A stretch of 64,000 bases of DNA, from NCBI RefSeq assembly GCF_013122565.1, contig NZ_CP053258.1; one strand, given 5' to 3'. Positions 50 to 16,267 of the stretch are shown here, in pieces. Position 1 is the stretch's first letter; every line of letters begins with the position of its first letter. The DNA comes from Escherichia coli (GTDB lineage: Bacteria; Pseudomonadota; Gammaproteobacteria; Enterobacterales; Enterobacteriaceae). The notes under the pieces were generated by a model. It did no database searches. It worked only from the letters and a program-made list of their open reading frames with translations, and was not told the DNA's origin. Both the position numbers and the translations under genes were made by a program.

Positions 50-2068
50 TTAGACGGCAATAGCGATTAGCAGCACAACCAGTGCGGTAACCACATACAG
101 GCAATAGAGACGAAAGTCGCCGCTTTGCAGATGCTGTATTTCTTTGGCCAGCCGTTGGGTGGCGCTCACGATGGGGCGGATCACCCGCTCATCCCAGAAG
201 GGTTCTGTGCTCTGAGCCCTGGCGGTGACGTGCGCAAGACCTTTATTTAGCCTCAGCGTAGGGTCGAGCTGTTGTCGTAGACGGAATAGCGCAGAAAAGA
301 CCACACGCAGCGGCTGCATCACGCCATTGCCTGACGGAGCCATCGCGTTTTCCCAGCTGTAGCCGCATGCCCAGGCATCTCCTGTGTGACGAAACGCTGC
401 GCGGCGCGAACGACACCACAGCCAGTAAAGGCCAGGCAGCAAAGGCATCGCCAGTAGTAACAGCAACAGTAATAAGGGGGTGACCTGTGTATGAAACGTG
501 CCGGGTACAAGCGCCATTCCGCTGGCGACAGTGACGGGAGGGGTATCGGTAAACGCATGGGCAATATGCATTATCTTCGGTGCCAGCCAACTGGCACTAA
601 GCGCAATTAATACGCAGAGTGCCGCGAGCAGTAGCATGGCGACGATCATCGTATTTGGCACTTCCTGTGCCTCTTCAGCGTGTGTACTGCGCGGCGCACC
701 ACAGAAAGTAATACCGTACATTTTGACGAAGCACATTACTGCCAGCCCACCAGTGACTGCCAGCATCACCATAGCAATAGGGCCCGCAAGTTGTAGCGCT
801 ACGGCTTCCACACGACTTAGTGAGAACAGCGACTGCCAGGTGTACCATTCGCTGATAAAACCATTCAGCGGAGGAATGGCTGATATCGCGAGGCAACCAA
901 TCAGGCATGCTGCGGCTGTCCACGGCATCCGTTTTGCCAGTGCCCCCATTTTTTCCATGTCGTGGGTATGCAAACGCGAAATAATCGCACCCGCGCCGAG
1001 AAATAGCAGCCCTTTGAACAGCGCATGGTTGAGCAGATGAAACAGCGCGCCGAGCAGTCCAACCACGGTGAGCAGCGGGTCGTGCAGTGACAGACCAATC
1101 ATCGCCACACCGACCGCCAGCAAAATAATGCCGACGTTTTCGACGGTACTCCAGGCCAGCAGCCGTTTGATATCCTGTTCCGCCAGCGCATATAGCACGC
1201 CCAGGAGCGCGGAGATTGTGCCGATCGCCATCACCAGAATGCCCCACCACAGAGGCAAACCCGTTTGCGCCAGCAGATCCATCGCTACTTTCAGGATGCC
1301 GAAAATACCGATTTTGACCATTACACCAGACATCAACGCCGAAGCGTGCGATGGTGCGGCAGGGTGAGCGCGCGGCAACCAGCTGTGCAACGGCATCATC
1401 CCGGCTTTCGCGCCAAAACCGAAAAAGGCCAGCAGGAATACCGCCGACGCCAGCCCCGGAGAAAGTGAAAGCGTGCGGAAACTGGCAAAATCGAGGCTGC
1501 CGCTTTCGCGCCCCATCAGCAAGAAGGCGATCATAATCAGCACCGATCCGGCGTGGGCGATAAAAAAGTAGAGCATGCCAGCGTTGATTGACGTTTTATC
1601 CTGCCTGGCAATGACCAGAAACCAGGAAGACAGCGACATCATTTCAAACAGCACGATGAACCAAAAAGCGTTGTCCATCACCAGCAGGGCAACCATCGAT
1701 GCGATGAAAATATTCATAAAGAAGCCCATCGCCGCCGCGCCTTTGCCCTCGTATTCGCGCATATAAGTCAATGAATAGAGCGAACAAACTACCACTAGCA
1801 AGGAGATAACCAGCACCATAAATGCCGAGAGGCTATCTATTCGCAGAGTTAAATCGGCAAAGTCAAAAGGGGTGGCAAAACGGGCGACTAAAGTTACGCC
1901 TCCATGTAATTGCGTAATTCCGCTGATGATGCCAATCACGCCGCCCACCAGCGATGTGATGCCGGAAAGCTTAATAGCCAGTCTGTCCAGACCGAGTAAA
2001 AACAGCGAAGCCAGACTGGCAAACAGATAGAGGATCAGCGACCAGGTTAATAATTGCAGGGCATCCAT
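50..2068 (-). CDS. hyfB: hydrogenase-4 subunit B (NuoL/ND5-like membrane subunit)
   Basis: 672-aa ORF, highly hydrophobic polytopic protein, N-term MDALQLLTWSLILYLF; follows hyfA with 1-nt overlap. Confidence 0.92.
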   Translation of the reverse strand: MDALQLLTWSLILYLFASLASLFLLGLDRLAIKLSGITSLVGGVIGIISGITQLHGGVTLVARFATPFDFADLTLRIDSLSAFMVLVISLLVVVCSLYSLTYMREYEGKGAAAMGFFMNIFIASMVALLVMDNAFWFIVLFEMMSLSSWFLVIARQDKTSINAGMLYFFIAHAGSVLIMIAFLLMGRESGSLDFASFRTLSLSPGLASAVFLLAFFGFGAKAGMMPLHSWLPRAHPAAPSHASALMSGVMVKIGIFGILKVAMDLLAQTGLPLWWGILVMAIGTISALLGVLYALAEQDIKRLLAWSTVENVGIILLAVGVAMIGLSLHDPLLTVVGLLGALFHLLNHALFKGLLFLGAGAIISRLHTHDMEKMGALAKRMPWTAAACLIGCLAISAIPPLNGFISEWYTWQSLFSLSRVEAVALQLAGPIAMVMLAVTGGLAVMCFVKMYGITFCGAPRSTHAEEAQEVPNTMIVAMLLLAALCVLIALSASWLAPKIMHIAHAFTDTPPVTVASGMALVPGTFHTQVTPLLLLLLLLAMPLLPGLYWLWCRSRRAAFRHTGDAWACGYSWENAMAPSGNGVMQPLRVVFSALFRLRQQLDPTLRLNKGLAHVTARAQSTEPFWDERVIRPIVSATQRLAKEIQHLQSGDFRLYCLYVVTALVVLLIAIAV

Positions 2069-2685
2069 TAGCGTTGCTCCTGAGTGAGGGAAAGGGGATC
2101 CTCCCCGCCATTGGCAAACCAGCTTGCGGCAAGGCGCTGTTTTTCTTTCATCTGACGTTGCAGGCTATCGTCGGTGATCAGCCGTAACGCCTGATTCGGG
2201 CAAGCGCGAACGCAGGCCGGACCTTCTGGCAAGAAATCACACAGGTCGCATTTCACCGCGACGGTCTGGACACCCGGTTCCCAGCGCAGCAAAGCATGTT
2301 GTGTTGGCGCGTTTTCTTCGCCGTCTTTGAGTGAGCCTTCAGCCTGAAAAACATATTGCGCAGGGGCATTCACCGGACGGCTTCCTGAAGCGCTGATTGC
2401 GCCAAATGGGCAGACCACGGCGCAAAGCTTGCAGCCAATACAGAGGCTTTCGTTGAGTTGGATCGCATCATCCCTCTGGGAGATGGCATTGACCGGGCAG
2501 ACCTGCAGGCAAGGGGCTTCCTCACAGTGATGACACACGACAGGGGCAGTGAGTGTTGACGTCTTCGCCAGGGCCAGGCGCGGGTGTTGCTGTAAACCTT
2601 GCGTTTTATGCACGTCCGAACAGGCAGCGAGACAGGTATTACATCCTGTACACCACAGTGGTTCGGCCACCACAAAGCGGTTCAT
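2068..2685 (-). CDS. hyfA: hydrogenase-4 component A, 4Fe-4S ferredoxin-type subunit
   Basis: 205 aa from internal ATG (MNRFVVAEPLWCTGCNTC); multiple CxxCxxCxxxCP ferredoxin motifs; ORF-track N-terminal extension rejected. Confidence 0.88.
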   Translation of the reverse strand: MNRFVVAEPLWCTGCNTCLAACSDVHKTQGLQQHPRLALAKTSTLTAPVVCHHCEEAPCLQVCPVNAISQRDDAIQLNESLCIGCKLCAVVCPFGAISASGSRPVNAPAQYVFQAEGSLKDGEENAPTQHALLRWEPGVQTVAVKCDLCDFLPEGPACVRACPNQALRLITDDSLQRQMKEKQRLAASWFANGGEDPLSLTQEQR

Positions 2686-2730
2686 GTCGGCTCCTTGAAA
2701 ATGATATGAAACATTGCATTGCATTTCATA

Positions 2731-2748
2731 TTGCATAAAGGATGCCAG
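2731..2748 (-). promoter_or_regulatory. candidate sigma-54 (-24/-12) promoter for hyf operon
   Basis: minus strand reads CTGGCATCCTTTATGCAA (GG-N10-GC spacing) about 45 nt upstream of hyfA ATG; hyf operon is known to be sigma-54 dependent. Confidence 0.5.
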
Positions 2749-2942
2749 TCTGATTAATTTAATATATTCAATAAGTTATGAATTAACTGGATTCTGAACG
2801 GTACAAAAATGATGGTCATTAACGTTCAGCAAAAAATGGATTCGACACCCGTGTCGCAGGGGAAAGCGAGAATGTGATCTTGATCACGATAAGTGAAGTG
2901 TGCTGACCGCAAGCGCAGCCAGCACGGAATGGAGCAAAGTAA

Positions 2943-10899: not shown

Positions 10900-11100
10900 T
10901 TACTTCTTCGGTTGATCCTTTTTCGGCCAGTCGTCGTCATCGTCCCACTTATCGTTGAAATCACGATGCGGGGGAAGCTCCGGCTTGTTGGCGAGAAATT
11001 TCTTATGGTCGACGCGCTTGAGATCTTTAATCACGTTCAGCAGGACGCCTACCAAAAAGACAATCACCAGAATCCACCAATATTTAGCCAGCCAGTCCAT
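10900..11100 (-). CDS. ypfN: small membrane protein YpfN (UPF0370)
   Basis: 66 aa from [22 protein letters not shown], single TM, acidic C-terminus. Confidence 0.85.
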
Positions 11101-12258: not shown

Positions 12259-12633
<375 letters not shown>

Positions 12634-12995
12634 TTATGAGAATAAATACTCATTTAAGAGTGAAAACATTTTGCCTGCAAATGATTATCAGGAAATATAA
12701 CATTATCGAAGTATTCAAATTAACAACTATTAAATAATATTAAACATTTTTAACGTAAACATTAAGAATATTCATCTTGTTATCTGTCTGTATTTTAACC
12801 AGAATTAAATAAGTATTAGATGCCGTATGAATATCTCGAAATGTTGCTGTGTATCACATACAAATCATCACCGCAGGACCATAGTATTTACATAAGGTTT
12901 GTCCCCCGGAGGTAGTCATCGCAGCAATCGAGTAAATTAGCTTCACCACGGTATATTGTTTCCGTAGAATACCCATAATTATAAGAGAGGTTGTT

Positions 12996-13055
12996 ATGAT
13001 TGAACGTGAACTGGGGAACTGGAAAGACTTTATCGAAGTTATGCTTCGTAAGTAA
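12996..13055 (+). CDS. ypfM: 19-codon small protein YpfM
   Basis: ATG preceded by AGAGAGG Shine-Dalgarno; encodes MIERELGNWKDFIEVMLRK; terminator downstream. Confidence 0.6.
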   Translation: MIERELGNWKDFIEVMLRK

Positions 13056-13115
13056 TTCCTGAGACAAAGTACAAACAGCAAGAACCCGCTGAGCAGGTTC
13101 TTAATCGGAAAGTTG

Positions 13116-13148
13116 AAAAAGGCGACACATTGGCATGTCGCCTTTTTT
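13116..13148. terminator. bidirectional rho-independent terminator (ypfM / acrD)
   Basis: AAAAA-GGCGACA-loop-TGTCGCC-TTTTTT lying between ypfM stop and acrD stop. Confidence 0.75.
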
Positions 13149-13153
13149 ATTGC

Positions 13154-16100
13154 TTATTCCGGGCGCGGCTTCAGCGGGAAGCGGCGGCGCACCAGCACAA
13201 AGAACAGCGGCACGAAGTAAATAGCCAGAATAGTAGCCGAAATCATCCCGCCCATTACGCCAGTACCCACCGCATGCTGACCACCGGAACCGGCACCCGT
13301 GCTGGTTGCCATTGGCAATACGCCGAAGATAAATGCCAGCGAGGTCATCAGAATCGGGCGTAAACGCTGACGGCAGGCGTGGAGCGTCGCTTCAAACAGG
13401 TCGTGGCCTTTTTGGTTCATCTCGTTAGCAAACTCGACGATCAGGATGGCGTTTTTCGCCGATAAACCAATGACCGTTAACAGGCCCACCTGGAAGTAAA
13501 CGTCGTTTTCCAGCCCGCGCATCCAGGTTGCCAGCAGCGCGCCGATAACCCCCAGCGGCACGACCAACATTACCGAGAACGGCACCGACCAGCTTTCATA
13601 CAATGCCGCCAGACACAGGAATACCACCAGCAAGGAAATGGCGTACAGCGCCGGAGCCTGCGCGCCGGAAAGCCGCTCCTGATACGACATCGCCGTCCAC
13701 TCCAGACCAAAGCCGTTTGGCAACTGCTTCACTAACGATTCCATAATATCCATCGCCGTACCGGTACTGACCCCCGGTGCGGCTTCCCCAACAATCTCAA
13801 CCGCAGAATAACCGTTATAGCGTTCCAGACGCGGCGAGCCTGTCTCCCAGCGTGAGGTCGCGAAAGCAGAGAAGGGCACCATGCCGCCATCTTTATTTCG
13901 GACATACCAGAGATTGATGTCATCTGGCAGCATGCGATACGGCGCAGCTGCCTGCACATAGACTTTCTTCACGCGACCGCGATCCATAAAGTCATTCACA
14001 TAGCTCGAACCCCAGGCGGTTTGCAGTGTGTCGTTAATATCGTCGATAGCAACGCCCAGCGCCTGAGCTTTACGCTGGTCGATATCAATCTGCAACTGCG
14101 GACTGTCGTCGAGGCCGTTATGGCGCACACGGGTTAGCTCCGGGTTTTCCGCCGCCAGCGCCAGCAACTGGTTACGTGCTGCCATCAGCGCATCGTGACC
14201 TGCTCCAGCGTGGTCCTGCAACTCCATATCAAAACCTGCAGAACTACCAAGACCGCTAATTGCTGGCGGGCTGCTGGCGATAACGCGAGCTTCTTTAATT
14301 TGGTTAAACGCCTTTGTTGCACGCTCGATAATGGCAAACGAGGTGCCGGTCTTACTGTCGCGTTCGCTCCAGTCTTTCAGGCGGATAAACATTCGCGCCA
14401 CGTTTTGCCCGTTGCCCCCAGGGCCAGAGCCAACGGTGGCAAACACCGACATGATGTTGTCTTTTTCATGGGTGAAGTAATATTTCTCGATTTGCTCAAC
14501 GACTTTCAGGGTCTGTTGTTGGGTTGAACCGCTGGGCAATTGTACCGAGGTAGTAAACATGCCACGGTCTTCCAGCGGTAAGAACGACGTCGGCAAACGC
14601 AGGAACAGGAACACCATGCCGCCAAGCAGCAGGACATAAATCACAATCCAGCGCAGGCTACGGTGGAGAATTTTCGCCACCCCTTTTTCGTAGCGTTCGG
14701 CGTTGCGGTTAAACATCTGGTTAAACCAGGCAAAAAAGCCTTTTTGCCCGTGATGCTCACCTTTTTTCAGTGGCTTAAGTAGCGTGGCACACAGAGCCGG
14801 AGTGAGGATCATCGCTACCAGTACTGACAGCACCATCGCCGCAACAATGGTAATAGAGAACTGGCGATAGATGGCACCGGTGGTGCCGCCGAAGAAGGCC
14901 ATTGGTACAAATACCGCCGAAAGCACCATCGCAATCCCGACCAGTGCCCCCTGGATCTGCCCCATCGATTTACGTGTGGCTTCGCGAGGAGTGAGTCCTT
15001 CCTCACTCATAATACGTTCGACGTTTTCCACCACCACGATGGCATCATCCACCAGCAGACCGATCGCCAGCACCATCGCGAACATGGTTAAGGTGTTGAC
15101 GCTGTAACCGAAGGCGTAAAGTACGGAGAAGGTTCCCATCAACACCACCGGCACGGCGATAGTGGGTATCAGCGTGGCGCGGAAGTTTTGCAGGAACAGA
15201 TACATAACGAGGAAAACCAGAGCGATAGCTTCCAGCAGCGTTTTCACCACGTCTTCAATGGAGGCTTTAACAAACGAGGTGGTTTCATATGCCACCTTGT
15301 ATTCCAGTCCGTGCGGGAAATACTGCGCCAGCTCGTCGAGACGATTGAGCACCAGCTCCGCTGTCGCCATTTCGTTAGCGCCGGAGGCCAGTTTTACCCC
15401 CAGCCCGGAGGCTGGCTTACCATTGAAGCGGCTAAGATAATCGTATTTCTCCGCCCCCATTTCGACGGTGGCGACATCGCCCAGCCTTACCTCTGAGCCG
15501 TCCTGATTCACCCGCAAGGTGATATCGCGGAACTGTTCTGGTGTTTGCAGCAGTGACTGGGCGTTAATGGTGGCGTTGAGCGCCTGCTTATCGACGGAAG
15601 GTGTACCCCCAAGTTGTCCAACCGCAATCTGCGCGTTCTGTGACTCAATGGCATCAGTGACATCTTTAGCCGTCATCTGGAAACTGTTGAGTTTCGCCGG
15701 GTCCAGCCAGATACGCATGGAATATTGCGAACCATAGGCATCGATATCCCCGACGCCATTCACGCGGCTTAACGGGTCCTGAATATTACTGGCAACATAA
15801 TCAGCAATATCCTGTTTATCCATCGAACCATCGGTAGAGACGAAGGCAATGGTCAGAATGTTGGTATCGCCGGTTTTACGCACCGTCACGCCCTGATTTT
15901 GCACCGCCTGCGGTAACTTTCGCATGGCTGATTGCAGCTGGTTTTGTACTTGCTGCACGGCTTCGTCCGGATCGGTGCCTGCTTTAAAACTTAAAGTGAC
16001 AGATGCCTGACCGGTGCCACTGCTCTGAGATGACATATACATGAGATTATCGAGGCCGGTCATATTTTGCTCGATAACCTGGGTCACGGTGTTTTCCAGC

Positions 16101-16267
16101 GTCTGGGCCGATGCGCCGGGATAGTTAGCGGTCACTCGCACATTCGGTGGCGCGAGATCGGGGTATTGTTCAACGGGCAATGAAAAAATCGCCAGGGTAC
16201 CTGTCAGACACAACAGGATTGCCAGCACCCAGGCAAAAATGGGGCGATCAATAAAGAAATTCGCCAT
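13154..16267 (-). CDS. acrD: RND-family aminoglycoside/multidrug efflux pump AcrD
   Basis: 1037 aa, [21 protein letters not shown], 12-TM RND transporter architecture. Confidence 0.96.

Follow-up and report, generated by a model that had tools for sequence, protein, structure and literature searches.

ypfM of Escherichia coli: an annotated and experimentally detected 19-codon gene in the yffB-acrD spacer

The small-protein gene ypfM of Escherichia coli was reportedly predicted in 2001. Among small proteins linked to efflux pumps, AcrZ consists of 49 aa that form a transmembrane helix, and its gene is not located beside acrB. In the RefSeq annotation of E. coli K-12, ypfM is b4606 (NC_000913.3:2590807-2590866, minus strand), and its product is labelled 'uncharacterized protein YpfM'. 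The published work mentioning ypfM that was found by literature search assigns no function to it.

The orthologous locus of Salmonella, also between acrD and yffB, is known as STnc250. The STnc250 RNA contains the ypfM ORF (Sittka et al. 2008, PMC2515195). In Northern blots, it was a stable, growth-phase-dependent RNA of about 220 nt. Upon co-immunoprecipitation with Hfq it gave 24 cDNA reads against 6 in the control, i.e., a 4-fold enrichment. The family name hints at a non-coding small RNA, whereas the discoverers concluded that STnc250 is a small mRNA gene (PMC2515195).

Expression of the peptide in E. coli has been followed at two levels. In a proteomic study of 2025 (PMC12529367), intact YpfM was detected by top-down mass spectrometry with 100% coverage in the N-formyl (fMet) form. 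The same study detected YpfM by DIA and by PRM, the latter alongside MntS in low-Mn2+ minimal medium, and mentions an earlier detection by Schmidt et al. In a ribosome profiling study of 2023 (PMC10746267, Table S8), ypfM is listed among the 'previously known sORFs' with quantified ribosome footprints. The log2 fold change of these footprints was +0.63 at pH 5.8 relative to pH 7.6. In a later sheet of the table, in a comparison taken here as acid stress, the footprint value was -2.5 (padj 7e-20) while the mRNA was unchanged. Since ribosome occupancy decreases about 5.7-fold with no change in mRNA, translational control is implied, and the expression of ypfM appears to be controlled partly at translation. 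According to this literature, the ypfM ORF is translated and the 19-aa peptide accumulates.

Reading frame and transcription unit

The stretch of E. coli DNA considered here, referred to as the window, comprises 64,000 nt of contig NZ_CP053258.1. At 12996..13055 on the plus strand it carries an ORF with ATG at 12996 and 19 sense codons followed by TAA (ATG ATT GAA CGT GAA CTG GGG AAC TGG AAA GAC TTT ATC GAA GTT ATG CTT CGT AAG TAA), with the product MIERELGNWKDFIEVMLRK. The 60 nt of this ORF are identical to K-12 b4606 and to the K-12 ypfM sequence printed in Table S8 of PMC10746267. RefSeq annotates 'protein YpfM' at this site of the window. The peptide matches the NCBIfam model NF033843 (small_YpfM, equivalog) at profile positions 1-19 of 19 with 59.2 bits (cutoff 33, E=2.4e-16). 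Pfam searched with the peptide gave no family, and PDB sequences gave no match at E<=10. The locus is ypfM, an already known, annotated and experimentally detected small-protein gene of E. coli, as the original prediction had supposed in giving this name to the 19-codon ORF at 12996. Its coding sequence is supported by direct reading, RefSeq, NF033843, conservation, and published mass spectrometry and Ribo-seq; ribosome profiling had been suggested beforehand as a check on the ORF, and the published footprints on ypfM answer it. We consider ypfM to be a stand-alone monocistronic small-protein gene with a probability of about 0.9.

Within E. coli, the locus is almost universal. The 538-nt yffB-acrD spacer is 100% identical to that of strain MEW. 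Of 5426 complete E. coli genomes, 5425 contain this spacer, and RefSeq annotates ypfM within it. The 83 nt comprising the 5' UTR and the ypfM ORF were found in 5424 of these 5426 genomes, with at least 99% identity in 4784 records. In one complete genome of the 5426, that of E. coli Res13-Sevr-PER06-05-b-A (NZ_CP062815.1; L083, 2548..3300), IS1A is inserted inside ypfM after query base 47, at about codon 9, which makes this strain a natural knockout. In the PGAP annotation of the same strain, a chimeric product at the far junction of IS1 is still named 'protein YpfM' (WP_195686594.1).

The gene lies between two genes of the opposite strand. On one side it is flanked by the divergent yffB (12259..12615, minus strand), encoding an ArsC-family reductase and followed by dapE; on the other side, by the convergent acrD (13154..16267, minus strand), an ORF of 1037 aa. 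The same layout is seen in 71 other species. Immediately past dapE, another annotated gene for a small protein, ypfN (66 aa, YpfN family), is found at about 10900..11100 on the minus strand, the coordinates being converted from L001 785..985. Downstream of dapE in Escherichia albertii (L003, 4766..4846), there is a match of 82 bits to the Rfam family naRNA4, a nucleoid-associated ncRNA derived from REP elements.

A short ORF preceded by a Shine-Dalgarno-like motif is in itself a common pattern. The window contains 24 ATG ORFs of 10-50 codons with such a motif, and block shuffles contain about 72. The pattern is not rare, and the reality of the ypfM ORF must therefore be judged on other evidence; it stands above chance because of its conservation and the experimental data.

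The transcription unit is compact. A consensus scan finds a sigma-70 promoter TTCACC-17-TAGAAT at 12942..12970 on the plus strand, with the -35 hexamer at 12942..12947 and the -10 hexamer at 12965..12970. The same sequence is given as the ypfM promoter in the genomic SELEX study of Shimada 2014 (PMC3946193). Judging by the spacing from these hexamers, transcription would start near 12977 and leave a 5' UTR of about 19 nt. The Shine-Dalgarno sequence AAGAGAGG is read at 12983..12990, 5 nt before the ATG; the AGAGAGG noticed earlier ahead of the start codon is the part of it at 12984..12990. Downstream of the ORF, a 3'-UTR hairpin AAGAACCCGCTGAGCAGGTTCTT (13079..13103) precedes an intrinsic terminator at 13114..13149, in which a G+C-rich hairpin is preceded by an A5 run and followed by a T6 run. 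The terminator scan flags this element on the plus strand only; on the minus strand, the stem followed by TTTTTCAACTTT was read directly. A distance of 5 nt separates the end of the terminator from the acrD stop codon (13154..13156, minus strand). Because of this distance and of the runs on both sides of the stem, it can, as far as its sequence goes, end both convergent genes, ypfM and acrD. The hairpin followed by a bidirectional terminator, as first described for this site, is thus present in the sequence.

The promoter at 12942..12970 would drive a transcript of about 175 nt consisting of a short 5' UTR, a strong Shine-Dalgarno sequence, the 19-codon ORF and a 3' UTR of about 95 nt reaching to the terminator common to acrD. 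For the predicted transcript of 178 nt, a folding energy of -48 kcal/mol is obtained (z = -2.7 vs shuffles), most of it from the two 3' hairpins. Initiation at this proximal promoter predicts 150-175 nt, less than the roughly 220 nt of the Salmonella RNA.

Upstream of the ypfM promoter, three conserved blocks, namely TGTTGC (12842..12847), TCACAT (12854..12859) and ACCATAGT (12878..12885), sit between the divergent ypfM and yffB promoters. They are about 80-99% conserved across Enterobacteriaceae, while their surroundings are not. A second sigma-70 promoter formed by these blocks was rejected, the TCACA-CATAGT spacing being 20-21 nt; CRP, Zur, MntR and sigma-54 sites were rejected as well, the blocks giving no fit to their consensus sequences. 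With transcription beginning directly behind CATAGT, the RNA would measure about 230-260 nt and come nearer to the 220-nt band of Salmonella. The yffB-proximal part of the spacer (12600..12900) is very AT-rich, with 23-31% G+C compared to about 55% in the flanking genes, and Shimada 2014 (PMC3946193) marks H-NS in the ypfM/yffB spacer. That study also predicts a yffB promoter TTCATA-16-TTTAAT, which was found by reading on the minus strand at 12831..12804. With the promoter at this position, yffB-dapE would have a 5' UTR of about 180 nt, which is unusually long.

Conservation and coding selection

Conservation was followed in 80 loci from different Enterobacterales species. The loci were fetched via the neighbouring protein YffB, so that the sample was not chosen for ypfM. 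A YpfM-like 19-mer was found in 74 of the 80 loci, always upstream of yffB and on the opposite strand. Its score was 66-100, against 30 or less for the second-best 19-mer in the same loci. The range extends from Escherichia, Citrobacter, Klebsiella, Enterobacter and Kosakonia to Yersinia, Erwinia and Dickeya; conservation of the peptide in other Enterobacteriaceae had been proposed as a check on the ORF.

In the 73 sequences with enough flank for counting, the start codon is invariably ATG. The stop is at codon 20 in 71 of the 73 and is variously TAA (46), TGA (22) or TAG (3). The sequence TAAGAGAGG ahead of the ATG is nearly invariant in the same loci. The terminator is found in 71 of 73 orthologous tails, with the end of the T-run at a median of 96 nt past the stop codon; both its stem and its T-run are conserved. 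The promoter hexamers are kept across genera, G-TA(G/T)AAT in more than 70 species, whereas the 17-nt spacer between them is not. The hairpin at 13079..13103 is specific to E. coli and close relatives: identity there is low, and upstream of the terminator only 14 of 71 orthologous 3' UTRs reach -8 kcal/mol or better. Even Dickeya and Yersinia carry a near-consensus -10, a Shine-Dalgarno sequence, 19 or 20 codons and a terminator at this locus. Taken together, the -35 and -10 hexamers, the Shine-Dalgarno sequence, the ORF and the terminator stem are retained and the promoter spacer and 3' UTR are free to vary, which is the profile that would be expected of a small gene.

Within the ORF, variation follows the codons. 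Of the 16 degenerate codons, 15 show third-position variation among 53 distinct ORF sequences, and the mean entropy is 0.69 at position 3 against 0.20 at positions 1 and 2 (Mann-Whitney p=8e-5). At Leu6 and Leu17, CTN and TTR codons are interchangeable among orthologues. In the ypfM frame, pS is 0.45 and pN is 0.065 (pN/pS 0.144), by pairwise Nei-Gojobori counts that ignore kinship and take pairs that are not phylogenetically independent. Four of the other five frames give pN/pS of 1.6-2.0, a large contrast to the ypfM frame; the antisense frame that shares wobble positions with ypfM gives 0.32. This substitution pattern indicates that purifying selection across Enterobacterales acts on the amino acid sequence and is not limited to the RNA. 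The synonymous/nonsynonymous pattern on which the coding claim had been staked is that of a coding sequence.

Codons 5, 7, 8 and 10 (13008..13025) are quiet at synonymous sites, while other ypfM codons vary freely: GAA is found in 53 of 53 sequences, GGG in 47 of 51 with Gly, AAC in 46 of 46 with Asn and AAA in 52 of 53. In this small sample, codon preference or a constraint at the RNA level could account for it. A 20-aa ORF with TTG start at 13000..13062 (plus strand, frame +2) was rejected, having stop codons in every other species.

Alternative readings of the locus

Besides the small-protein gene, the locus could be read as an RNA regulator. The Rfam family RF01409 (STnc250, Hfq-binding RNA) matches the 3' part of the ypfM mRNA at 13035..13154 on the plus strand. 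The model spans the last six codons, the 3' UTR and the terminator. In the window the match has 37.5 bits (E=7.6e-6), below the gathering score of 42. At the orthologous site, scores of 94, 82, 50, 44 and 43 bits are obtained in Citrobacter, Yokenella and E. albertii, all of them above the threshold; the 94 and 82 bits belong to Citrobacter and the 43 bits to E. albertii. It follows that the window locus is orthologous to STnc250. The lower E. coli score is due to a longer 3'-UTR insert: at one gap of the model E. coli has 37 nt with a hairpin of its own, compared to 13 nt. Matches to CsrC and Ysr186 at 13115..13148 were rejected, as they cover the terminator only and are far below threshold.

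It is unlikely that ypfM is a dual-function RNA in which the peptide regulates a larger protein (possibly AcrD, YffB/DapE or a factor of low-Mn2+ or acid conditions) while the Hfq-associated mRNA takes part in small-RNA regulation. The evidence for such a combination consists of gene linkage, the 4-fold Hfq enrichment and condition-dependent translation. Quite unlikely is the broader proposal that the locus is mainly or additionally a base-pairing, Hfq-dependent sRNA, with an ORF that either is incidental or forms, in the manner of SgrS/SgrT, half of a dual-function RNA. It can draw on the RF01409 match with its above-threshold scores in neighbouring genera, on the Salmonella co-immunoprecipitation (24 vs 6 reads, PMC2515195) and on a transcript that is short, stable and ended by a terminator. 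However, a purely non-coding sRNA is excluded because of coding selection, stop codon turnover at a fixed position and a peptide detected by mass spectrometry. In addition, conservation within the unit is lowest between 13056 and about 13113, where the hairpin is not kept; in the orthologous loci, no conserved single-stranded seed was found outside the coding constraint, the conserved non-coding stretches being the Shine-Dalgarno region and the terminator. The Hfq enrichment is modest and based on few reads, the publications found on ypfM name no target mRNAs, and STnc250 was reclassified as a small mRNA by its finders (PMC2515195). Given this modest association in Salmonella, the ypfM mRNA may instead be a target of small-RNA regulation.

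A further proposal, by analogy with AcrZ-AcrB, would make YpfM a subunit accessory to AcrD, the RND efflux pump encoded next to it, or a regulator of this pump; this is very unlikely. The linkage of the two genes does speak for it. In 71 loci ypfM is convergent to acrD at a median of 111 nt from the acrD end, with the terminator common to both, and the five informative loci with no acrD beside yffB lack ypfM too; in locus L075 the absence of ypfM is at a contig edge and is uninformative. Yet such joint absence is equally explained by replacement of one DNA segment, and convergent genes are not co-transcribed. In Dickeya, ypfM is found beside yffB with no acrD nearby, the neighbours being cspE and crcB. 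The peptide also has no transmembrane segment (GRAVY -0.43, 8 of 19 residues charged).

Several of the variant loci have features of their own. In Dickeya oryzae (L080, 1194..1255 and 1723..2088), ypfM is followed by a cspA-family gene with a match to the cspA thermoregulator (119 bits), and crcB lies behind a fluoride riboswitch match (50.7 bits). Locus L051, where acrD and ypfM are missing, contains two paralogous ORFs (598..960 and 2320..2664) on either side of a putative membrane protein; both begin with MPNIKDLNFDEIALVSGG, which resembles the double-glycine leader of microcins. In locus L068, which likewise lacks acrD and ypfM upstream of yffB, the space at 300..2911 is occupied by three paralogous ORFs in tandem, each of about 270 aa.

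It is highly improbable that ypfM is a regulatory leader or upstream ORF for which the act of translation matters and the peptide does not. Very short length and a strong Shine-Dalgarno sequence are indeed shared with leader peptides, and translation efficiency shifts under acid stress. But such a role fails because nothing to be regulated lies downstream on the ypfM strand, where the conserved terminator is followed by the 3' end of the convergent acrD. The strongly conserved amino acid sequence, with 9 of 19 positions invariant, and accumulation of the peptide to levels sufficient for intact detection by mass spectrometry also argue against it.

That the real gene is the 75-aa antisense ORF with TTG start at 12854..13081 (minus strand), with ypfM conservation as a by-product, can be given practically no weight: its frame is stop-free over the 57-nt overlap in all 62 distinct sequences with a pN/pS of 0.32, but both are expected from the wobble positions that the two frames share (12998 is a third codon position in each), and ypfM has half this ratio and 22 distinct peptides where the antisense frame has 34. 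From start to stop, this ORF spans ypfM in only 46 of 73 species, its length ranging from 0 to 118 aa, and beyond the overlap it consists of poorly conserved sequence. It has no RefSeq annotation and would need transcription against the ypfM promoter. These comparisons indicate that it is spurious, a shadow of ypfM, in agreement with the first impression of it.

The peptide and comparison with known systems

With ypfM read as a small-protein gene, the conservation of the peptide bears on its possible action. Nine of the 19 positions are invariant from Escherichia to Dickeya: across 23 peptide variants, these are M1, E5, W9, K10, F12, I13, M16, L17 and R18. Nearly invariant are I2, G7, D11, E14 and K19, the last changed in one of the 23 variants. 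Replacements fall almost entirely at the hypervariable positions 4 and 15, both on the polar face of a predicted helix. The peptide has four positive and four negative charges and is net neutral. Because YpfM is too polar and too short, it would not span the membrane.

The helix itself is predicted from sequence periodicity. The hydrophobic moment peaks at exactly 100 degrees (muH 0.546), a value reached by 2.9% of shuffles. The hydrophobic face would consist of I2, L6, W9, F12, I13, M16 and L17. G7 may introduce a kink, and the conserved Gly7-Asn8 could break the helix. The hydrophobic face together with a few of the charges would contact something specific. At slightly under even odds, YpfM is a soluble amphipathic alpha-helix that docks on a larger protein partner, as other bacterial microproteins do.

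The gene is already annotated as b4606, has its own NCBIfam model and has been detected by Northern blot, mass spectrometry and ribosome profiling. It can therefore serve as a positive control, being a genuine 19-codon gene that ordinary ORF finders miss and that was recognised here from sequence alone. YpfM is among the shortest conserved and abundantly detected proteins of E. coli. Mutagenesis and the search for partners could start from the conservation map, with the invariant hydrophobic face, E5, K10, R18 and the nearly invariant K19 on one side and the free positions 4 and 15 on the other.

Compared with K-12 YpfM (b4606, YP_001165325.1; NF033843), the window shows no differing feature: the 60 nt, the peptide, the position between acrD and yffB, the promoter, the Shine-Dalgarno sequence and the terminator are all the same, the window being simply another E. 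coli strain. Other soluble or dual-function microproteins of enterobacteria, such as MntS (42 aa) and SgrT/SgrS, may offer analogies. They share with ypfM a short length, a transcript of their own and conservation confined to enterobacteria, and the presumed action is the binding of a larger protein. YpfM differs from MntS and SgrT in having no sequence similarity to them and half their size, and, unlike SgrS, the ypfM RNA has no conserved non-coding seed region. AcrZ resembles YpfM as a small protein tied to an RND pump, ypfM being the conserved neighbour of the RND pump gene acrD. Unlike AcrZ, YpfM is hydrophilic and amphipathic, has 19 aa and no transmembrane helix, and is kept in Dickeya with no acrD as its neighbour.
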